Positions 2,561-12,102 are shown, numbered from the stretch's first letter. The stretch is DNA of 64,000 nucleotides from Verrucomicrobiota bacterium (GCA_038748025.1 JBCDJI010000014.1:3539-67538), one strand, 5' to 3'. Made by a program: numbers and translations. The notes: generated by a model from the letters alone, not told the origin.

Positions 2561-2964
2561 GTGAGAATGCATTGTTTGTCTACGGTTCACTTCTCTCGAT
2601 GGAGGTCTTAGAGATGGTCATCGGACGGGTGGCTGAATCGCAAGCGGCGGAGCTGAAAGGATATGCCTGTTATTATGTTGAGGGGGCGACATTTCCCGCG
2701 ATCGTAACAGAGCGTGGTGCCAAGACCCCGGGGAAAATTCTCAATGATCTGACCGCGGCTGAGATAGCGACTTTGGATCGGTATGAAGACACCTTTTATC
2801 AGCGGACTTTAGTTGAGGTTCAATCCGGGGGGGAATCAATCCTTGTCATGGCCTATGTGGTTCCAGATACATATCGATATGTCCTGTCTGCTAAATCATG
2901 GACCTGGGAAGACTTTGAGCAATACCATCTGGCGGATTACATAGCTCGGATGCGCGGTGTCTAG
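2557..2964 (+). CDS. Gamma-glutamylcyclotransferase-like (AIG2/GGACT family) protein
   Basis: The ATG at 2557 overlaps the upstream TGA (ATGA coupling). The pattern LFVYGSL...GY..Y......FPAIV...PGKIL...LDRYEDTFYQR matches the AIG2-like family. Confidence 0.6.
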   Translation: MSENALFVYGSLLSMEVLEMVIGRVAESQAAELKGYACYYVEGATFPAIVTERGAKTPGKILNDLTAAEIATLDRYEDTFYQRTLVEVQSGGESILVMAYVVPDTYRYVLSAKSWTWEDFEQYHLADYIARMRGV

Positions 2965-3416
2965 AGTGATTCGAGCAGTGTGGGAACCATTTCGATATTC
3001 AGTTCCGGATACATTTTTTGTACCAGCTCCATATTGGAGCTGCCTTCTACACTGAGTGGTTTCCGGGTCTGGTTGTCAGCCAGCCATTGGTTGCCATATT
3101 TATCCCAGTAATGCACAACAACGTGTGATCCGATGTCTCCCTTCTCATCGCTCCAATTGAAAAAAATCATACTGGAGAGCAGCCCGGCCTCAAAATAAAG
3201 CTGACGTTGCAGCTCCTGAGCATAGGGGAAGCAGTGATGCAGTTTTCCCTTTCCACTGACGGACTCGGAGCTGGCAATACGATAGTGTTTAGGCAGATAA
3301 CGGTGGTCGGCCTCTGCATTTACGATAGCGCCCGTAATGACTAAGGTCGTTAAAAGGAGCATGGGGAGAAATGCCCTGAAAAGCTCCTGGGGAGACAGAA
3401 TAGTTACGCTTTTCAT
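2961..3416 (-). CDS. Hypothetical secreted protein with a Cys...His...Asp arrangement
   Basis: 151-aa ORF with an N-terminal hydrophobic signal-like segment (LPMLLLTTLVITGAIVNA). It carries HHCFPYAQEL, then GSHVVVHYWD, then WLADN. Confidence 0.45.
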   Translation of the reverse strand: MKSVTILSPQELFRAFLPMLLLTTLVITGAIVNAEADHRYLPKHYRIASSESVSGKGKLHHCFPYAQELQRQLYFEAGLLSSMIFFNWSDEKGDIGSHVVVHYWDKYGNQWLADNQTRKPLSVEGSSNMELVQKMYPELNIEMVPTLLESL

Positions 3417-3496
3417 ATAAAAATTATAATATTAACTAAGCAGATTTCAACGCTGCTTTCTTTCTGAATATAAAGCAGGATAAATGCCGGATCGGT

Positions 3497-4189
3497 TTAG
3501 AATTTGAACCAGCGGTCCAGCAGGTCAAATAGCGTATCTTTGCAGGAGGCTTGATGATACTCGGCTCCGGAAAGAATATCTTTCGGCTGCGAAATGTAAG
3601 GGCCACTCCAATCCGGTAGCCGAGTATCATTTATAAGCTCTTTGATCACGGAATGGCTGATTTCAATATGAAACTGTAGTCCAATACACTTTTCGATGGC
3701 AAAGCCCTGATTAATGCAGCCTTCTGTGCTGCCGAGCAGGGTGGCCCCATCGGGGAGTTCAAAGGTATCACCATGCCAGTGAAATACGGGAAGCTGATCC
3801 GGAAAAGCGCTGAGAACGGGATTTTGCGAAGCAGCATCGGTGCGTGATAGTGGCAGCCAGCCGAGTTCCTGATGAGGATTCGGGAAAACGTGTTTACCGA
3901 GTGCGGCTGCGATCAGTTGTGCGCCCAGACAAATTCCCAGAACCGGGATATCAGCAGCTATGGCTTGTCGGATGTAGACTTTTTCAGCAGCCAGCCAGGG
4001 ATGTGCTTGCTCGTCATCCACATTCATCGGACCACCCATAATGATGAGGTGTTCGGGTAGTGATGTTGGAGCTTGTGGAATCTGATACCAGTGATGCTCG
4101 GCTATATCGCAACCTGCAGCCGTCGCCCAGTCCCGGATCATGGCAGGACCTTCGTAGGGAACATGTTTCAGCACGAGAATATTGGGCAT
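3497..4189 (-). CDS. Class I glutamine amidotransferase-like protein
   Basis: The nucleophile elbow PVLGICLGAQL and the FHWHGDTF motif are typical of GATase1 (GuaA-like) domains. The protein is 230 aa. Confidence 0.8.
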   Translation of the reverse strand: MPNILVLKHVPYEGPAMIRDWATAAGCDIAEHHWYQIPQAPTSLPEHLIIMGGPMNVDDEQAHPWLAAEKVYIRQAIAADIPVLGICLGAQLIAAALGKHVFPNPHQELGWLPLSRTDAASQNPVLSAFPDQLPVFHWHGDTFELPDGATLLGSTEGCINQGFAIEKCIGLQFHIEISHSVIKELINDTRLPDWSGPYISQPKDILSGAEYHQASCKDTLFDLLDRWFKF

Positions 4190-4254
4190 ACCTCTTGAAT
4201 AAGCATCTCAAGATTACTTTTCAATAGAAAGATGTGAGTCTATATTTTTGTCAG

Positions 4255-5640
4255 ATGGAATTGAAGCTTTACAACACATGGAGTCGGAAAAGTGAGCCAG
4301 TTTATGCCTCGGATCATGAGCAGCTGCGCTTTTACTGTTGCGGGCCAACCGTTTACGGGCCAGCGCATATTGGTAATTTTCGGACCTTCATTATGCAGGA
4401 CCTGCTCCGCAGGGTAGTGGAAGGCATCGGAATCCCGACGCGACATATTCGTAATATTACCGATGTGGATGATAAAACCATTCGTGGGTCCCAGGCAGAA
4501 GAAAGAACACTGGGGGAATTCACCTCACACTGGAGGCAGGTGTTCGAACGGGATTGTGAGTCATTAAATCTCTTACCTCCGCATGTCGCGCCTTCCGCGG
4601 TGGAGCATATTCCTGAGCAGATTGAGATGATCAAAGGCCTGATTTCCAGAAACCTGGCTTACATCAGTGATGAAGGATCCGTGTATTTCCGGATATCGGC
4701 ATTCGAAAACTATGGCAGATTGGCCGGGCTGAATCCGGATGAGCTCAAAACTAACGCCGATCAGCGCCTCAACGATGCGGATGAATATGAGAAAGAAGGG
4801 GTCAACGATTTCGCGCTGTGGAAAGCCTGGAAGCCGGAAGATGGTGAAAACCAATGGGACAGTCCCTGGGGGCCAGGCCGTCCGGGGTGGCATATCGAAT
4901 GCAGTGCCATGAGTTGTAAGTATCTGGGTCACTCGTTCGACCTTCATTCCGGTGGAGTAGATCTCATCTTCCCGCACCATGAAAACGAGATCGCTCAGAG
5001 TGAAGGCTACAGTGGTGAGAAGTTTGTCCGTCACTGGTTCCATGTCGCCCATCTGCGGATTGAAGGTGACAAGATGAGCAAGTCATTAGGGAATCTATAC
5101 ACTTTGAAAGATATTGAGGGCTGGGGCTTTACCGGACAGGAACTGCGTTACGTGCTGTTATCCGGACATTATCGGCAGCCTTTGAACTTTACCAGGGACT
5201 CTTTAAGCGCCGCGAAGTCAGGACTCAATCGGATCACAAAGGTAGCCTCGGCTATCGGGGTTAAAGCAGCGACGCATGATTATAAATATGGACGGTTTGC
5301 GCCGGTGATGGAAGCGCTCTGTGACGATCTCAATACGGCCAAGGCATTAGGAGCATTGTTTACCGTGGTGGGTGAAATAGAGCAGGAACTCAAGGTGGGG
5401 CAGGCGGTAGATGCTACTGGATTGGCGGGTATTCTGGATGTCTTTGGATTTAAATTTTCGGATGAGCCTGAAGCGGACATATTGGCTCCTGCGGGCGTGC
5501 TGGTATTGGCGGAGGAACGTCTGCAGGCGCGCATGGATAAAAACTGGGTCCGCTCCGATGAATTGCGCGATGAAATCGCGGATCAAGGATGGATCATCAA
5601 GGATTCCAAAGCAGGTTTTGAACTGGAACCTGTCAAGTGA
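4255..5640 (+). CDS. cysS: Cysteine--tRNA ligase
   Basis: HIGN (HIGH-type) and KMSKSLGN motifs, with class I CysS architecture. The start is taken at MELKLYNTWSRK; the ORF stays open back to 4234. Confidence 0.95.
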   Translation: MELKLYNTWSRKSEPVYASDHEQLRFYCCGPTVYGPAHIGNFRTFIMQDLLRRVVEGIGIPTRHIRNITDVDDKTIRGSQAEERTLGEFTSHWRQVFERDCESLNLLPPHVAPSAVEHIPEQIEMIKGLISRNLAYISDEGSVYFRISAFENYGRLAGLNPDELKTNADQRLNDADEYEKEGVNDFALWKAWKPEDGENQWDSPWGPGRPGWHIECSAMSCKYLGHSFDLHSGGVDLIFPHHENEIAQSEGYSGEKFVRHWFHVAHLRIEGDKMSKSLGNLYTLKDIEGWGFTGQELRYVLLSGHYRQPLNFTRDSLSAAKSGLNRITKVASAIGVKAATHDYKYGRFAPVMEALCDDLNTAKALGALFTVVGEIEQELKVGQAVDATGLAGILDVFGFKFSDEPEADILAPAGVLVLAEERLQARMDKNWVRSDELRDEIADQGWIIKDSKAGFELEPVK

Positions 5641-5679: not shown

Positions 5680-5934
5680 ATGATTGCTAAAGCGTTCATG
5701 CTGCTGATTCGCGGATACCAGCTGGTACTCTCACCTGTGATTACCGCGTTGTCGGGTGGGGCCGGCTGCTGCCGTTTCAGTCCGACCTGTTCGGAGTATG
5801 CGATTCAGGCCCTGCAACAACACGGAGCGATACGTGGTAGCTGGCTAGCGGTTCGGCGTATCCTGCGTTGCCATCCCTGGGGAGGAGCCGGCTTAGATCC
5901 GGTTCCGGCTCCAGAGCATTCCCATGATCATTGA
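5680..5934 (+). CDS. yidD: Membrane protein insertion efficiency factor YidD
   Basis: 84 aa. [11 protein letters not shown]...[19 protein letters not shown] is the YidD signature. Confidence 0.9.
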
Positions 5935-6400
5935 GCAGGATGAGCACTTCATGCGGCGGGCTATTGAGCTGGCTGCTGCGGTCGACCCGAAACAGACCGA
6001 TCCCAATCCGCGGGTGGGATGTGTGATCGTTCTGGATGGTGAAATTATTGCGGAAGGTGCTCATCAGCAAGATGGGGGGCCACATGCCGAGGTCGCAGCA
6101 TTCCATGCTTTAGGAGAACGTAAGGTAGTAAGTGCAACCTTGTATGTGACACTGGAGCCCTGCTCGACTCCCGGTCGCACAGGTGCCTGCACGGATGTGA
6201 TTATACGCTCGGGCATGATTCAACGGGTTGTTTTTGGGGATCTGGATCCAAACCCGGCACATCGTGGTCATGCAGAAGAAGTCTTAGCTGCTGCGGGGAT
6301 CGAAGTTGAAAGTAACTGTTTGCAGAAACTGTGTTCAGATCTAAATCCTGAGTTTTATCGCCGCATGCAAAATATAGACTCACGTATCAAGCCTGCTTAA
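5924..6400 (+). CDS. Riboflavin-type pyrimidine deaminase domain protein (CMP/dCMP deaminase fold, RibD N-terminal-like, no reductase domain)
   Basis: Zinc motifs HAEVAAF and [14 protein letters not shown]. The protein is only 158 aa. It overlaps yidD by 11 nt. Confidence 0.75.
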
Positions 6401-9002
6401 GCAGATTTTCTGAAGACAAGTTTCCCATACGCCTGTTGATCCATTCAAAGCCGTAAACAGCAACAGTCATACTCAACAACATAACACCCGCTGTCATTAA
6501 AAACTGATATTGCGCATTCGGGTGAACGGGAACCAGTGCCCACCACAGGCTGGTGCTCCACATCGTCAGACACATCAGGCCGGCACAGATCAAATGTGAT
6601 TTCAGGTCCTCCGCATGAATCTTTTGGGGAGAACCCGCCAGGTATCCGGCAATTCCCGAGAGAAACATCAGCAGATACATCGGGTTGAACAGGGAAGCAA
6701 TCCCCTCGCCAAAAGGTGAATCGGCACAGCCACACAGGCAGACGCCTTCAAAGACAACCGGGCGCCAACCGGCCAGGATGATCCAGCCGGCCAACATACC
6801 TGCGGTGCACCAGACATAACAGAGCCCACAGCCGAGGCGGTATCGCGACAGACTGAAACTGTTCCGTAACAGTAACCAGATCATGACACCGGTGATACTT
6901 AAAACCGTAATCGCTCCCTGCCAGCCGAAACTGCCGGCATATGCAAAGAGGATAGCGGATACGATCATCCCGGAACTGATCCAGACATACGAGTATCTGG
7001 AACCTTGCTGTTTCGTCTGTTTGCGCTGCAAAGGCAATACCCCGTTTAGCGAGGTATGCGCATTTTTTAGCGCGCGACCGGAAACGGTGGTACTGCTTGC
7101 CAGCATCAGGAGTGCGGCCCAGACCGGGTTCAAAATACCGGTAGCCGCCAGGGTGATACCGATCGCGTTGTAACTGGCGGCAAACACTAAATTACTGCGC
7201 AGGGTATGGATGGTCTTGTTGGAGAGCTGTAATGCAGTGAGCAGCGGGCTGATGTTTTCAGTACGGATCACTGCCTGCGCCGTCTGGGAGGCGATGTCAC
7301 AGCTGCCTGCAATGGCGATGCTGGCGTGAGCGGCATCCAGTGCCGGGGCGTCATTGGTGCCATCGCCGATGAACAAGACGTGGTTTCCTTTGTTTTGCAA
7401 CTCCACTATTTTTGAGCGTTTTTTTGAAGGTGTCAGGCCTGCCTCAAAGTCAATTCCCGCTGGAATGAGAGCTGCCAGAGGTGCATGTTGATCGCCCGAG
7501 AGCAGTTGAACCTGGTAGCCGGCTTTTTGTAACGTTCGGATCGTTGCTACTGAATCTGCCCGCAGTTGTTCGGTAAAATGTGCCACGCCAGCCAGCTGGT
7601 TGTTGATTTTTACGTAAACGGCCCGCTCTCCTGGTAGACAGTCCGGGGATTGTGCACAATTTTTCAGGGTCTGCTTATCTTTGGCAGTGAGGAGTCTTTC
7701 ATTGCCAATACGGAGGGTATTGTGATCATTCAAAATCCCTGAAAGCCCGACTCCGGGAATGGCGGAACAGTGCAGGGCTCGCTTGCCGGTCTGCCAGCTC
7801 TGGAACAGGCGGGCAATCGGGTGCCTGGATTCCAGTTGGATGGCAGCGATGGCAGCTTTCAGGTCGCTTTCAGAAAACCCTGGAAAGGTATAAAATTCCT
7901 TAAGTCTTGGCTCGATTTCACTCAGAGTGCCGGTCTTGTCAAAAATGATGGTATCCACCCGATGCAGCCGTTCCATGAAATCACTTTGCCGGGTGGTAAT
8001 ACCGGCCTGATAGAGACGATTGACCGAGCTCCAGACAGCCAAGGGGGTCGCTAAGCCCAAGGCACAGGGGCAGGCCACCACGATCACCGCCAGGGCATGA
8101 AACAATGCCGTTTGCCATTCCGCCTGGAACCACCACCAGCCAAAGGTTACCAGAGCAATGGCTACTACAGCAGGGAAAAAGACACGAGCCACCTGCTCTG
8201 CCTGTAACTGGATACGCGATTGCTGCAGCCGGGATTGCTGTAGAGTCTGGAGCAAGGTATCTAATTCACGCTGGTTGCCCGCAGTGGTTGCTTGGACCAT
8301 CAACTCGCCATCCAGGTTATCGCTGCCTGCAAGAACGCGATCGCCCTGAGTGCGAGAGACGGCAAAGGGTTCACCGGTTAGCGGGGTCTCCTGCACCAAC
8401 CCGGTTCCCGACAGAATATGACCATCTACCGGAATGCCTTCCCCGGGTTTTATCAGGATTTCCTGTCCGGGTTGGATCGAATCACTGGCAACATACGTTC
8501 CATCGGCCAGACGAGCCTGTGCGTACCGCGAATGAACAGAGGTAATGGCCTGGAGGGCTTTATTCTTCTGGACCTTGGTCAAGGTTTGACCGAGCGAGTA
8601 AATAGCAACCAGGATAGCAACAACTTCATAATAAATATCTCCGGTTCGGGTGATAGAGGAATGCAAAGACGCACCAAAGGCTCCGGTAACACCTAAGAGA
8701 AATAAAGCTTCCATTCCCGGGCGGGCAGAGCGCACCTGGCGGTAAGCGATTTTAAGCATGCGAGTTCCCGCCAGCAGAAAAACCAGCAGAACGGCTGCGG
8801 CCAGTAAGGTATGTAAAATGATATAAGCCCAACCGGTCGGTGGAGAAAAGTTAACCCCTAGCCCGAAGATCATGGTCAGTCCGGATATGGCAAGTGCAAT
8901 GCCCAGCCTCAACCAGTAAAAGGCGTCAAATGGGCCGGTGGTGTCGCTAGTGGCGGGGTCAAGCGATTCAGGAGGCGAAGAGCAGCAACAGCAGGAACTC
9001 AC
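6387..9002 (-). CDS. Heavy-metal P1B-type ATPase (CcoI/FixI-like by context) with a CCCC N-terminus and a 224-aa polytopic C-terminal extension
   Basis: TGEP actuator motif (PLTGEPFAV), CPC in a TM helix (VVACPCALGLATP), DKTGTLS phosphorylation site and GDGTNDAPAL hinge. It sits directly downstream of ccoN/ccoO. Confidence 0.85.
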   Translation of the reverse strand: MSSCCCCSSPPESLDPATSDTTGPFDAFYWLRLGIALAISGLTMIFGLGVNFSPPTGWAYIILHTLLAAAVLLVFLLAGTRMLKIAYRQVRSARPGMEALFLLGVTGAFGASLHSSITRTGDIYYEVVAILVAIYSLGQTLTKVQKNKALQAITSVHSRYAQARLADGTYVASDSIQPGQEILIKPGEGIPVDGHILSGTGLVQETPLTGEPFAVSRTQGDRVLAGSDNLDGELMVQATTAGNQRELDTLLQTLQQSRLQQSRIQLQAEQVARVFFPAVVAIALVTFGWWWFQAEWQTALFHALAVIVVACPCALGLATPLAVWSSVNRLYQAGITTRQSDFMERLHRVDTIIFDKTGTLSEIEPRLKEFYTFPGFSESDLKAAIAAIQLESRHPIARLFQSWQTGKRALHCSAIPGVGLSGILNDHNTLRIGNERLLTAKDKQTLKNCAQSPDCLPGERAVYVKINNQLAGVAHFTEQLRADSVATIRTLQKAGYQVQLLSGDQHAPLAALIPAGIDFEAGLTPSKKRSKIVELQNKGNHVLFIGDGTNDAPALDAAHASIAIAGSCDIASQTAQAVIRTENISPLLTALQLSNKTIHTLRSNLVFAASYNAIGITLAATGILNPVWAALLMLASSTTVSGRALKNAHTSLNGVLPLQRKQTKQQGSRYSYVWISSGMIVSAILFAYAGSFGWQGAITVLSITGVMIWLLLRNSFSLSRYRLGCGLCYVWCTAGMLAGWIILAGWRPVVFEGVCLCGCADSPFGEGIASLFNPMYLLMFLSGIAGYLAGSPQKIHAEDLKSHLICAGLMCLTMWSTSLWWALVPVHPNAQYQFLMTAGVMLLSMTVAVYGFEWINRRMGNLSSENLLKQA

Positions 9003-9017
9003 GATAAGAAACCACTT

Positions 9018-9278
9018 TTATTGAAAAACGCCCAGTCGCTCGAGCGGGGTGCTCATGGATTTCCAGTCGAATTCACCTGCCAGCGTCAGTAAATACAGCG
9101 CTGCACCGATGAGCATGAAGATATAAAAATGACGTAAATACCATGGCACTTGCTTATAAAGCTCTCTGGGGTCCGGTAGTTCGCGCACGATGGCCTCGTG
9201 CACTGCGCGCACGTTCATGTCCTCGCCGCGATTGATCTTTTGAGTGTCTGGATGATGAGGTTGTGGTTTTGAATTCAT
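9018..9278 (-). CDS. Small single-TM membrane protein in the cco operon (CcoQ-like position; no heme motif)
   Basis: 86-aa ORF whose ATG overlaps the ccoO stop (ATGA). It has one hydrophobic helix (FYIFMLIGAALYLLTLAG) and no CXXCH. Confidence 0.4.
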   Translation of the reverse strand: MNSKPQPHHPDTQKINRGEDMNVRAVHEAIVRELPDPRELYKQVPWYLRHFYIFMLIGAALYLLTLAGEFDWKSMSTPLERLGVFQ

Positions 9279-9907
9279 GACGGGTCTGCAGTTTCAAGCG
9301 GGGTGTTGCTTTTCTTTAATGATTTCAGGTACTCGACCAAAGCCAGCACTTCCCGGGTAGGAATCACTTCGTAGCCTGCTTCCGGCGCATATTTTCCGGT
9401 CAGATTCAAGGCCTGTGGATGCGGTTCATCTCCGATTTTTTGTTTTTTAAACAAAAAAGGATAAGGAGCCATGATCGAACCTTCGGATGTGATTTGCGGA
9501 TGGTAGAGATGCAAAAGGTGCCAGTCTTCGCTGGGCTGCCGAACGCCGATGTTGCTCAAGTCCGGTCCGGTTCGCATCGTTCCCAGCAGCGCGACTTTGT
9601 CGTTGAGATAATCCTCCGGCATGGTGCGACGCTGGCCCCAGCCCATTTTCTGGTCTCCACCGGCATATTCCGGTCGCACCTGCTGGCTGTGACAATACAT
9701 GCAACCCTGAGACACGTAGACTTCACGTCCCAGATCGATGATGTCGGCAGCCGGAGTCGGTCCGATGCCGGCAGTTGCTTCATCGCGCACTTCATTCAGT
9801 GCCCCGAGATTCAGGATCGGAAGAATAACCAGGCCTGCCCAAGATGAACCGATGGTGGCAATAAAACCGATCCAGACCCATAGATATTTTTTGTGACTGC
9901 TGTTCAT
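9275..9907 (-). CDS. ccoO: cbb3-type cytochrome c oxidase subunit II (monoheme)
   Basis: Single heme-c site CMYCHSQQVRP after an N-terminal TM anchor. The start is taken at MNSSHKKYLWVW, just downstream of the ccoN stop; the ORF stays open to 9979. Confidence 0.85.
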   Translation of the reverse strand: MNSSHKKYLWVWIGFIATIGSSWAGLVILPILNLGALNEVRDEATAGIGPTPAADIIDLGREVYVSQGCMYCHSQQVRPEYAGGDQKMGWGQRRTMPEDYLNDKVALLGTMRTGPDLSNIGVRQPSEDWHLLHLYHPQITSEGSIMAPYPFLFKKQKIGDEPHPQALNLTGKYAPEAGYEVIPTREVLALVEYLKSLKKSNTPLETADPS

Positions 9908-9909
9908 TT

Positions 9910-11400
9910 CTAGGTGGAAACGGTTTCCGTATGACGTGGTTGAGCCAGTAAGGTGGGTCGACCACCTTTCGGCGACCACCCCATCAGTAAGAGCGTAAAC
10001 GACAATACAAATGCCAGATGTGCCAGGGTGAGTATGCCGCCCGAAACACTGCGCGCTTGCAGATAGGGGATCGTAATCTGCATGATTTCCATGAAACCCT
10101 TTTCCGCTTTATTCATCTCCCACCCTTGAATCCATCCTCCGATGGAAAGGCTGAAGGTCATTAGTGAGATACCCAGCACACACAGCCAGAAATGGGATTT
10201 GATCAGAAACGCGGATGGCCATTCGCGATTCCAGAGTCGCGGCATGATGTAATAGATTGCACCAAATAACATCATGGTGACAAAGGCATACATTCCGAGG
10301 TGAGCGTGCCCGACGGTGTAATGCGTGAAGTGAGTGATCTGATTCAGAGGTCGTATTGCTGCAGTAGAGCCTTGGATACTGACCAGCGTGTAGCTCATTG
10401 CTGCAAAGACGACAAACCTCAGGGTAGGGCTCCAGCGCACCGCGTCAAAGCTGCCCCGCATTGTCATGTGATGGTTGATGGCCACGGTAATGACTGGAAC
10501 CAGCATCATGACGCTGGCGGCAATACTGGCACTGATCAACCATGCGGGAAAGGGACCGCCGATCAAATGATGCATCCCGTTCCATGCATAGAAAAATGCC
10601 AGGGACCAGAAACCAACCATAGACAGGTAGTAACTGTGGATCGGTTTTCCGATGACTTTTGGAATCAGATAATAGGCAGCGGCCAGACACACCGGGGTAA
10701 ACCAGAGTCCCAAAGCGTTGTGGGCAAACCACCAGTTGATGGGAGGCATGGCAGGCGCCTGAACCGGGAACCAGACGAGCAGAATCGTTGCGGTCGCGTA
10801 CAGCCAGGGAAACCAGCAAAAGGCAGCTAGCACATACCACTGGGAAATGTAAACATGACCCGGTTGCCGGTGGTTCATCATGCGAATGATCTCAAACATG
10901 AAAATTGCAAATGAAATCAGCAGGAAAGGGGTCGCGTAGTAGGGGAATTCCAGCCATTCGATTGACGTGCTGTCACCTCGCAGGATACCGGCAGTGCCGA
11001 CGAGGATTCCAATATTCCAGGAGATGGCTCCAATCCAGAGCAGAGGTCCCTGCCGGAGTTCGACTCGGGTCAATCGCGACATCAACCAGAGCCCGACACC
11101 CAGACAAGCTGTCGAAACCCAGCCATATGCCATTGTATTGAGATGTGCTGGCCGGACCCGGCCAAACGTCAACCAGTCACTGCCGCCTAAAAATTCCGGC
11201 ATGTGCAGTTTCATGGAAGCTGCAATGGCCAGAGCCGATCCCATGAGTAACCAGAACAAGGAAGTGGCAAAAAGCAGTGAAACGACTTTTTTGCACGACA
11301 AGTCGACCAGTTGCCGTTCTACCAGGTTTTTTGCATGATCTGATTCACCAATTTTTTGAGCGCGACTGGTGGTGATAGGTTGCGCTATCGACACACTCAT
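9910..11400 (-). CDS. ccoN: cbb3-type cytochrome c oxidase subunit I
   Basis: 496-aa polytopic heme-copper oxidase-like protein with His-rich helices (HFTHYTVGHAHLGMY, NGMHHLIGGP). It lies between ccoS and ccoO. Confidence 0.9.
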   Translation of the reverse strand: MSVSIAQPITTSRAQKIGESDHAKNLVERQLVDLSCKKVVSLLFATSLFWLLMGSALAIAASMKLHMPEFLGGSDWLTFGRVRPAHLNTMAYGWVSTACLGVGLWLMSRLTRVELRQGPLLWIGAISWNIGILVGTAGILRGDSTSIEWLEFPYYATPFLLISFAIFMFEIIRMMNHRQPGHVYISQWYVLAAFCWFPWLYATATILLVWFPVQAPAMPPINWWFAHNALGLWFTPVCLAAAYYLIPKVIGKPIHSYYLSMVGFWSLAFFYAWNGMHHLIGGPFPAWLISASIAASVMMLVPVITVAINHHMTMRGSFDAVRWSPTLRFVVFAAMSYTLVSIQGSTAAIRPLNQITHFTHYTVGHAHLGMYAFVTMMLFGAIYYIMPRLWNREWPSAFLIKSHFWLCVLGISLMTFSLSIGGWIQGWEMNKAEKGFMEIMQITIPYLQARSVSGGILTLAHLAFVLSFTLLLMGWSPKGGRPTLLAQPRHTETVST

Positions 11401-11582
11401 GATTCAGATCTGGGAAATTTGTCAGTGGGTTCGCCAATGGGCTCAGACGGATCAAAAATCGAAGCCGCACTTTCCTCGGGGTGTTTGAACTGCCCGCTTT
11501 CAGCCGCCCACCAGAAGGAGATGACCGCCGACAGCGTAATTCCTACAAGCACAATCAAAACCAGAGCTCCTGCTAATATCAT
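11397..11582 (-). CDS. ccoS: cbb3 oxidase maturation protein CcoS/FixS
   Basis: 61 aa with a single TM followed by SGQF (WWAAESGQFKHPE), which is the CcoS signature. It overlaps the ccoN start by 4 nt. Confidence 0.8.
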   Translation of the reverse strand: MILAGALVLIVLVGITLSAVISFWWAAESGQFKHPEESAASIFDPSEPIGEPTDKFPRSES

Positions 11583-11730: not shown

Positions 11731-12102
11731 ATGTCACAGCGCAACACCAGGCAAAAAAAAGCGATTCAGCAAGTGATCGCCCAGGCTGAGCACCCGTTGA
11801 CTGCTCATGAAATCGGAGCGAGAGCAAATGCCAGTGTTCCGGGAATTGGAATTGCCACCATATACCGCGCGTTAAAGCGGCTCCAGCAAGAGCAAGCTGT
11901 CACAGTAGTGGAGCTTTCCGGAAAATCACCGCGCTATGAATCAACTCAGAAAGGGCATCATCATCATTTTGTGTGTTCTGGTTGCGGGCAGGTTTACGAC
12001 CTGCAGGGCTGTTCAGGAAATGTGGAAGCACTTGCTCCCAAAGGTTTTAAGGTTGAAAAACATGAGATTACCTTGTTTGGCCTGTGCCAGGAATGTGCCT
12101 AG
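11731..12102 (+). CDS. Fur-family transcriptional regulator
   Basis: 123 aa. It has a winged-helix N-terminus (IATIYRALKRL), then HHHFVCSGCG...CQEC metal-site motifs. Confidence 0.85.
   Translation: MSQRNTRQKKAIQQVIAQAEHPLTAHEIGARANASVPGIGIATIYRALKRLQQEQAVTVVELSGKSPRYESTQKGHHHHFVCSGCGQVYDLQGCSGNVEALAPKGFKVEKHEITLFGLCQECA

Follow-up and report, generated by a model that had tools for sequence, protein, structure and literature searches.

A copper-type P1B-1 ATPase of Verrucomicrobiota, very probably fused to an undescribed six-helix membrane domain with conserved methionines and cysteines

In Rhodobacter, copper is imported by CcoA and re-exported by the ATPase CcoI, along a chain that runs from CcoA to CopZ, CcoI and SenC (PMC8475189, PMC7558416; published papers are cited throughout from excerpts). 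The CcoI of R. capsulatus carries two N-terminal metal sites, one a glutaredoxin-like CxxC and the other CopZ-like (PMC8475189). MxxxM motifs are essential in CcoA and in Ctr1, and the excerpt of PMC4725013 states that no bacterial Ctr homologs are known. The inward passage of copper across the bacterial inner membrane is poorly understood, with few importers known (CcoA/CalT, the candidates CopD and YcnJ, and mechanosensitive channels), and it is an open question why copper for periplasm-facing oxidase sites first transits the cytoplasm. Here we analyze a pump gene in a 64,000-nucleotide stretch of DNA from a Verrucomicrobiota bacterium (GCA_038748025.1, JBCDJI010000014.1:3539-67538), called the window in its whole length. 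The gene encodes an 871-residue protein in which a P1B-type ATPase is followed by a second, C-terminal membrane domain, called the tail.

Like CcoI/FixI, the window pump is a Cu+-type P1B ATPase encoded together with ccoN-, ccoO- and ccoS-like genes, and it probably supplies copper to an oxidase rather than detoxifying alone. The classical CcoI/FixI gene lies in a ccoGHIS cluster beside ccoNOQP, and its product is needed for cbb3 oxidase activity and not for copper tolerance. It differs from CcoI/FixI at its N-terminus, which has only a short Cys motif in place of HMA/CopZ-like or glutaredoxin-like sites, and in having a six-helix C-terminal domain, a divergent oxidase partner and no other P1B ATPase found in its genome. 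It is ~27% identical to the ATPase of a canonical cluster in genome G002 (C33:44469-46280), which belongs to the same genus. A sequence-only reading of the window had described the pump as CcoI-like; that description is apt for a Cu+ pump in a cbb3-like operon, but at this level of identity it does not extend to orthology with the classical CcoI/FixI. The same reading's picture of a second membrane domain on a copper pump with a link to cbb3 oxidases agrees with the place of the gene, which ends the cbb3-like operon.

The pump and its tail are read from a single frame. The span first noted, positions 6387-7061, is exactly residues 648-871 with the stop codon, and the ATPase core before it terminates ...ASSTTVSGRALKN. 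A contig from a second public sequencing run spans 6300-9100 with 8 substitutions and 0 indels, although both runs come from one study and the first may be the window's own source; all eight substitutions lie in the pump core, between 7489 and 8972. With no indels in the second contig and an open frame that recurs at ~100 related loci, a missed stop or frameshift is excluded. A run of six A near the junction is the sole hint that an assembly or sequencing error joined two genes, and this explanation, already refuted by the second assembly and by the identical open frame in ~100 loci of many species, has a negligible probability. A full-length AlphaFold2 (AF2) model of the protein has a predicted local distance difference test (pLDDT) score of 84.2 and a predicted template-modelling (pTM) score of 0.73, with residues 1-24 disordered and the tail helices at ~90 pLDDT. 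We conclude that the gene very probably encodes a genuine fusion, kept across relatives, that joins a Cu+ pump to a new membrane domain in which the conserved residues are ligands of soft metals.

The fusion is found well beyond the window. An exhaustive phmmer search with the tail against 1.84 billion representatives gave 20 matches at E up to 1e-3, comprising ~870-890-aa proteins with a C-terminal tail and ~180-240-aa tail-only proteins; a word-indexed search using the single tail had returned no stand-alone forms, which the exhaustive search later revealed (complete stand-alone proteins measure ~210-240 aa). We also used degenerate DNA patterns that require GW...C-L-C-G-C, in whose loci the conservation of Cys, Gly and Trp is by construction. 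In species-representative genomes the pattern occurred at 63 places, and a domain hidden Markov model (HMM) confirmed 48 of them, 45 in frame with a P1B core and 3 stand-alone. The remaining 15 are chance matches, for example in Nocardia, Aeromonas and Rhodovulum. A longer pattern yielded 45 loci in metagenomes, all of them confirmed (45/45), with 38 fused, four complete and stand-alone, and three cut by contig ends. Nearly all confirmed loci belong to Verrucomicrobiota, mainly Chthoniobacterales, Terrimicrobiaceae, Methylacidiphilales and Opitutae, and one metagenome-assembled genome with a window-type operon carries the label Blastochloridaceae. On one metagenome contig (L114/L123), two identical 870-aa fused genes overlap on opposite strands, and this resembles a palindromic artefact of assembly rather than biology.

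Among 41 genomes of the window's order, pump orthologs are 39-53% identical to the window pump, and their frames are complete (~870-1014 aa) in 12 genomes and fragmentary in three. The single-sequence tail query found only 6/41 of these genomes; a profile raised the complete tail-bearing frames to 12, and seven orthologs missed by the single sequence carry the tail by profile at E values from 2e-33 to 7e-50. Profile A1 found 3/401 in a phylum-wide sample, a count that may be too low as seven first-look candidates were scored per genome, and 2/201 in an Opitutales-order sample. The C-terminal fusion that the sequence-only reading had noticed in one gene thus recurs at 45/48 genome loci, at 38/45 metagenome loci and as 12 complete frames in the 41 order genomes. 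In the tree, the label fused or alone switches at least four times on well-supported branches, where rows P0008 and P0021, labelled 'alone', are actually fragments of fused proteins. The window's own tail clade has a support of 100/99 (bootstrap/approximate likelihood ratio test).

Judged by its sequence, the core is a P1B-1 Cu+-exporting ATPase, a known family, here without an HMA domain. The NCBIfam models TIGR01525 and TIGR01511 (the copper subfamily) match it with 422.8 bits (cut-off 346.25) and 403.1 bits (cut-off 397). Heavy-metal P-type ATPase models cover residues ~79-645, the Pfam E1-E2_ATPase family covers 170-330 and the HAD Hydrolase 349-558. The ATPase core that the sequence-only reading had called complete is so, as LTGEP, CPC, DKTGT and GDGTNDAP (residues 546-553) are all read in the translation. 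In a Foldseek search with the full-length model, the CopA structure of the eight-helix fold, LpCopA 4bbj, matched at E 5.9e-37 with a template-modelling score (TMt) of 0.72, only the ~660-residue core being matched; together, 4bbj and 3rfu matched at E ~1e-34 to 1e-37 and TMt 0.72-0.74. The residues of the Cu+ site were compared in alignment A2, which holds 41 full-length fused proteins: the CPC of M4, Y611 and N612 of M5, and M633 and S637 of M6 are invariant and S636 is kept in at least 90%, while the Pro of YN(x)4P is a Thr in the window pump.

Typical P1B-1 pumps carry an N-terminal HMA domain (GMxCxxC), which is not obligatory. As the sequence-only reading had noted, it is absent here: HMA (PF00403) matched neither the window pump nor any of 50 scanned fused relatives (0/50), nor anything in the window's genome. 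The Cys-rich start, MSSCCCCSS, noted in the same reading, is read in the translation, and its C4 and C5 are kept in at least 90% of the 41 fused proteins, with the consensus MSACC. This motif is likely a cytoplasmic Cu(I) site that replaces the HMA domain. Some stand-alone tail proteins (P0011, P0009) have Cys-rich N-termini that resemble the MSACC start of the pump, which suggests that the cytoplasmic Cys motif travels with the domain.

In the hydropathy profile of the 871-aa protein, eight helices fall within the core and six within the tail, and two AF2 models also give six tail helices, in agreement with the roughly six extra hydrophobic helices of the sequence-only reading. Modelled by itself from a 17-sequence alignment, the tail is a six-helix bundle (pLDDT 83.9, pTM 0.79). 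The last 230 residues (P0002) matched no family in Pfam or NCBIfam at E up to 0.1, mer-type and thioredoxin-type families included; a DsbD_2/TauE-like or CcoG/CcoH-like identity, as the sequence-only reading had considered, is not borne out, with neither TIGR02745 (CcoG, a 4Fe-4S ferredoxin-like cupric reductase) nor PF05751 (CcoH/FixH) matching at E up to 0.1. Across 19 tail relatives, the sole Pfam match was of P0009 to TauE (E 0.027, 14.6 bits), well under the cut-off of 32.6. The best profile match to PDB sequences had E 0.18, and the best Foldseek match of the fold to the PDB also had E 0.18, with no solved fold at E <=0.001. VIA-align in its wide mode, which is independent of Foldseek, reached a best Z of 6.4, the noise level for unrelated helical bundles. 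The ESM Atlas returned unnamed clusters at 0.91 and a best named one at 0.82, none of them usable. The HMM and structure searches of residues ~648-871 matched no named domain and no solved fold. Stand-alone members that bear a source name are all titled 'hypothetical protein', and the open-access full-text literature (subscription journals lie outside its coverage) held no description of the domain. A literature lead on CXCXC turned out to concern the TRASH/YHS domains of pumps from Rhizobiales, with no relation to the tail. Within the literature and databases searched, both the tail family and the architecture of pump plus six-helix tail are undescribed.

We measured conservation on 34 similarity-retrieved sequences, non-redundant at 90% and numbered as in P0001, because the DNA patterns themselves demanded the Cys motif. 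M736, M775, M779, M810, M814 and M845 are each present in 34/34 sequences and M841 in 33/34, and G739 and W740 are each present in 34/34. Further rungs are common rather than universal: Met is found in 30/34 at 849, the next position of helix 6, and in 26/34 at 728, and Cys in 20/34 at 853 and in 21/34 at 806. Seven to eight conserved Met thus form i/i+4 pairs on helices 4, 5 and 6, with a single Met on helix 3. Each pair lies on one helix face, and within the AF2 helix limits the run extends from the outer end of helix 4 to past the middle of helix 6. In the loop that joins helices 3 and 4, C-x-C-x-C is found in 30/34 sequences and CSSCC, HSCCH, HCACC or SCC in the others, with at least two Cys in 34/34. 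In loci L127-L133 of the order families f2 and f4, the loop motif varies (CVCDC, CSSCC, HSCCH, HCACC, SCC) and the Met pairs are all kept; therefore, the Cys cluster is plastic and the Met ladder is the constant feature.

The window protein has three Cys clusters in its tail, RLGCGLCYVWC (C725/728/732), EGVCLCGCADSPFGEG (C755/757/759) and HLICAGLMC (C806/811). The Cys ladder of its helix 3 is absent from most relatives, which instead have Met at 728 and the equivalents of M849 and C853 on helix 6. The window clade is without these two lowest rungs of helix 6, having Val849 and Glu853. The helix-3 Cys ladder looks like a compensation, the lower half of the ladder relocated, and this fits a path through the membrane.

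In P1B ATPases, helix M6 ends in the cytoplasm, and tail helix 1 therefore starts inside. Across 62 domain sequences, loop 2-3 holds 1.58 Lys plus Arg per sequence, loop 4-5 holds 1.03 and the C-terminal stub 1.73, against 0.11 for loop 1-2 and 0.24 for loop 5-6. Due to this charge bias, loop 3-4 with the Cys cluster and loop 5-6 are predicted to be periplasmic. The topology for which the sequence-only reading had called is thus a Cys loop facing the periplasm and a C-terminus in the cytoplasm, by positive-inside counts. Stand-alone forms share the charge pattern of the fused tails.

The stand-alone domain has its own setting. At 6/7 loci (L014, L055, L087, L088, L101 and L107), its gene follows immediately 3' of a gene for a copper amine oxidase, whose strand it shares and whose end it overlaps. 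An APC-type (amine) permease gene follows at 5/7 loci, L088 being too short to tell, and an aldehyde dehydrogenase gene is nearby in L087 and L101. The L101 oxidase (641 aa) opens with an AGAO-like N2 domain at residue 9, leaving no room for a signal peptide, and the L087 oxidase, from its likely start, is equally hydrophilic with no such room. Lacking a signal peptide, these oxidases would therefore be cytoplasmic cuproenzymes that need imported copper. For a Cys/Met-lined membrane protein in an amine-catabolic operon with a cytoplasmic cuproenzyme, copper import is the simplest role. The L101 oxidase (2898-4820, minus strand) ends in a short His/Cys-rich tail (...HGCHG...), a possible site for picking up copper that would face the membrane protein.

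Compared with described copper importers, the tail shares principles and no detected ancestry. CcoA/CalT also relies on membrane MxxxM motifs, and CcoA acts upstream of CcoI in oxidase maturation (PMC4725013, PMC7558416). However, CcoA has the 12 helices of the MFS fold, its MxxxM and HxxxM lying in TM7 and TM8, whereas the tail has six helices, no MFS match, a Cys loop and far more conserved Met; no search that we ran detected homology between them. Ctr1 is likewise a small membrane protein in which rings of MxxxM Met line the Cu(I) path, with Cys/His at the cytoplasmic end, but it has three helices and works as a trimer, while the six-helix bundle of the tail could hold a ladder within one subunit. 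The Ctr family gave no Pfam sequence match to the tail and no fold match (Foldseek; VIA best Z 6.4). The engineered CcoI-SenC fusion (Andrei et al. 2021, PMC8475189) also places a periplasm-facing copper-binding module on the C-terminus of a pump, and it is functional; it is artificial, and its SenC part, a periplasmic domain with a thioredoxin fold, sits on one helix and is not a polytopic Met/Cys bundle. CopD, YcnJ and PcoD are also polytopic inner-membrane proteins, proposed to import copper for cuproenzymes. CopD has eight helices and different His-based motifs, and its family, PF05425, matches neither the tail nor anything in the window's genome.

The window's genome (94.7% complete, 29 contigs) has few other copper-handling genes. 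The pump is the only P1B ATPase found in it. There are three haem-copper oxidase subunit I genes and one Sco/SenC gene, which adjoins a DUF420 gene. We found no FixH/CcoH, PCuAC, CopD or copper amine oxidase there, no CcoP over the cut-off, and no CcoG over the family cut-off (best 18.9 bits). Neither ccoG nor ccoH is thus found elsewhere in this genome, as the sequence-only reading's idea of the tail as their stand-in would have it. In its simple form, that idea is contradicted by G002, where a canonical ccoN-ccoG-P1B cluster accompanies a divergent oxidase with a fused pump. Because the two systems coexist in G002, the tail does not replace CcoG/CcoH across the genome and is instead one component of a parallel system, apparently the only one of the two in the window's genome.

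As far as its genes tell, the oxidase that adjoins the pump is a divergent C-family-like enzyme. Across the 41 order genomes, its ccoN-like gene (220-266 bits) occurs in 16. Nine genomes have canonical ccoN (>620 bits) and G036 has fragments of it, and canonical CcoG is present over the cut-off in 10; canonical ccoN adjoins CcoG and a separate P1B ATPase ~26-27% identical to the window core, for example on contig C33 of G002. Fused-pump orthologs are present in 16 of the 41 genomes as a separate score tier (39-53% identity), their split from other P1B ATPases resting on tiers of score and identity. Pump ortholog and divergent oxidase occur together in 15 genomes and are both absent from 24; the pump occurs without the oxidase in one (G018), and the oxidase without the pump in one (G024, 88% complete). 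Direct adjacency of the two is seen in G000, G002, G004 and G006, which are members of a single family; their distance is 7-8 kb in G007 and G038, and other genomes have them located elsewhere.

We tentatively favor a reading, to which we give somewhat less than an even chance, in which the tail serves as a conduit or relay for Cu(I), carrying periplasmic copper inward to the pump, to be re-exported for the oxidase. The Cys loop would capture periplasmic copper, and Cu(I) would descend through the membrane to the cytoplasmic face along the thioether and thiolate ligands of the Met/Cys ladder. The tail would then hand Cu(I) to the cytoplasmic entry of the pump, the site of the conserved N-terminal Cys pair, and the pump would re-export chaperone-ready Cu(I) for the divergent cbb3-like oxidase, probably via the genome's single Sco. 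One polypeptide would thereby cover both CcoA (import) and CcoI (export), which are separate proteins in Rhodobacter. The analysis itself shows the fusion and its conservation, the pattern of ligands, the topology from charge bias, the settings of the genes and the shared occurrence with the oxidase; that the tail binds copper, which way copper flows and that it is handed to the pump are what we infer. Inward conduction is favored because the stand-alone copies adjoin a cytoplasmic copper amine oxidase, and a relay of import and export makes sense because the genome has no HMA chaperone. A broader version, possible but rather doubtful, is that the tail founds a new family of bacterial Cu(I) permeases, which when fused form a self-contained relay metallating the divergent oxidase without a cytosolic chaperone and when alone feed cytoplasmic amine oxidases.

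Several observations weigh against an inward conduit. An importer joined to an exporter looks futile, and as the only copper pump of the genome, the protein must also detoxify. In G010, the pump ortholog (G010:C117:20589-22532, L134) stops right after M6 in a 677-aa frame, and this genome (96% complete) has a divergent oxidase and no detected tail gene; at least one lineage can therefore do without the tail. The term ladder rests on sequence spacing and AF2 helix limits rather than S-S distances, and the Cys loop between helices 3 and 4 is poorly modelled in both AF2 models (pLDDT ~55-70). The oxidase-linked stand-alone copies are four distinct sequences in one well-supported clade, from a few related Opitutaceae-like lineages, and are therefore counted as one evolutionary observation; the stand-alone locus L024 has no oxidase nearby. 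The counts of pump and oxidase co-occurrence come from kin genomes, so that they describe an association and not independent events and are no more than suggestive of a CcoI-like need of the oxidase for the pump, and most fused genes (those of Chthoniobacterales) adjoin no oxidase gene and have unrelated neighbours.

The tail could instead act at the exit of the pump, as in the hand-off idea of the sequence-only reading. Placed at the periplasmic exit, it would catch released Cu(I) on its outer-leaflet Met/Cys and pass it onward to Sco, or laterally to CuB of the ccoN-like subunit, as a built-in analog of SenC or Cox11. The topology and the helix positions indeed put the Cys loop and the majority of invariant Met in or near the outer leaflet, the genome is without PCuAC, CcoG and CcoH in our searches, pump and divergent oxidase co-occur tightly, and SenC engineered onto the CcoI C-terminus functions in vivo (PMC8475189). 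However, an acceptor of this kind makes little sense beside a copper amine oxidase without a signal peptide and its permease, it has no need of conserved Cys/Met rungs at the cytoplasmic ends of helices 3, 5 and 6, and a Sco protein is present anyway. We regard it as a possible role, on balance an unlikely one.

Two further explanations concern other roles of the tail. It may be a regulatory or structural appendage that senses periplasmic or membrane copper and gates the pump, or a supporting bundle akin to M7-M10 of P2-type ATPases, its metal sites only tuning activity. Its C-terminal place matches the extra helices of P2-type pumps, and the full-length model aligns with P2/P3 pumps over 850-1000 columns at a query-based score (TMq) of ~0.5; the tail-less G010 ortholog indicates that a pump can exist without it, and regulation is part of what the N-terminal metal sites do in CcoI (PMC8475189). 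Such an appendage is nonetheless improbable, given that the domain is conserved alone with no pump nearby in 7 loci, that its invariant residues are metal ligands on helix faces and not packing residues, and that the fused or alone label changes repeatedly on supported branches. Still less probable, to a degree that makes it a minor contender, is a role other than copper handling, in which the tail would serve a different soft metal (Ag, Hg or Cd, for example) or work in thiol-redox relay, for instance as a module that reduces cupric ions or disulfides. Clustered outward-facing Cys could be redox-active, Cys/Met sites also bind Ag(I) and Hg(II), and CcoG, which was not found in this genome, acts as a cupric reductase (PMC8475189). 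However, each kind of partner is a copper protein, namely a P1B-1 pump with Cu+ residues or a copper amine oxidase, and no mer-type or thioredoxin-type family matched.

If the inward conduit is the true role, the tail would be in principle a prokaryotic counterpart of Ctr1, and the fused protein would be CcoA and CcoI in one chain. The tail is a compact, unannotated family with an unusually clear ligand signature and two natural settings, on an exporter and alone beside a cytoplasmic cuproenzyme; the import-then-export route is therefore directly testable. The fusion also represents a new P1B architecture, in which a C-terminal membrane metal-binding domain stands in place of the soluble N-terminal HMA, and it brings to light a divergent cbb3-like oxidase with its own dedicated pump.

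Table 1. Features of the pump gene and its operon, in window coordinates
Feature	Position	Strand	Remarks
Whole pump gene	6387..9002	-	One uninterrupted 871-aa open reading frame (ORF); GTG start, read as M; stop 6387-6389
N-terminal Cys motif MSSCCCCSS	8976..9002	-	Residues 1-9; disordered in AF2
P1B-1 Cu+-ATPase core	7068..8930	-	Residues ~25-645; 8 transmembrane helices and A, P and N domains
Transmembrane metal site C311-P312-C313	8064..8072	-	CPC; invariant in A2
DKTGT phosphorylation motif	7926..7940	-	Residues 355-359; invariant in A2
Linker from pump helix M6 to tail	6999..7067	-	Residues 646-668 (~25 residues); basic, cytoplasmic; AF2 coil, pLDDT ~61-63; sequence ...LQRKQTKQQGSRY
Six-helix tail, unnamed family	6414..6998	-	Residues 669-863; AF2 helices 669-689, 694-713, 720-743, 774-790, 797-821, 830-863
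Cys ladder C725-x2-C728-x3-C732-x3-M736	6795..6830	-	Tail helix 3, cytoplasmic half; window-clade-specific
Cys cluster C755-L-C757-G-C759	6726..6740	-	Loop of tail helices 3-4; predicted periplasm-facing (positive-inside counts)
M775-x3-M779	6666..6680	-	Tail helix 4; 34/34 each
C806-x3-M810-x3-M814	6561..6587	-	Tail helix 5; Met positions 34/34 each, Cys 21/34
M841-x3-M845	6468..6482	-	Tail helix 6; 33/34 and 34/34
86-aa single-helix ORF	9018..9278	-	Between ccoO-like gene and pump; no Pfam/NCBIfam family match
ccoO-like mono-haem subunit	9275..9979	-	Pfam FixO 2.4e-23; TIGR00781 70.3 bits (cut-off 200.65)
Divergent ccoN-like catalytic subunit	9910..11400	-	Pfam COX1 1.1e-74; TIGR00780 221.7 bits (cut-off 583)
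ccoS-like small ORF	11397..11582	-	FixS 21.3 bits (cut-off 23.1) and TIGR00847 23.9 (cut-off 28.35), both just below

The operon of the window is ordered ccoS-like, ccoN-like, ccoO-like, 86-aa ORF and pump, the pump being last (Table 1). The 86-aa ORF is kept at the same position in L010 and L042 and could be a CcoQ-like or other small subunit. At other loci, genes of cytochrome c assembly (ResB/CcsA) recur nearby, in L053, L061 and the stand-alone L024, and so does cobW, in L053. An OprB-family porin gene lies directly downstream on the same strand at 15/84 loci with enough downstream sequence (for example, L018 8192-9622), probably within one subclade, and this porin may be an outer-membrane partner for copper traffic.

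In the window, a gene for a Fur-family regulator (123 aa, 11731-12102, plus strand) is divergent from the ccoS-like gene. A Fur regulator directly follows the pump in a same-genus locus (L002 2190-2558, L042 8396-8764), so that the operon linkage survives rearrangement. The window also holds two overlapping ORFs, YidD (84 aa, 5680-5934, plus strand) and a cytidine/deoxycytidylate-type deaminase (158 aa, 5924-6400, plus strand). Together they match a single 229-aa ORF in L002 (2571-3257) and L042 (8777-9463), which reflects either a fusion in these relatives or a frame difference in the window.

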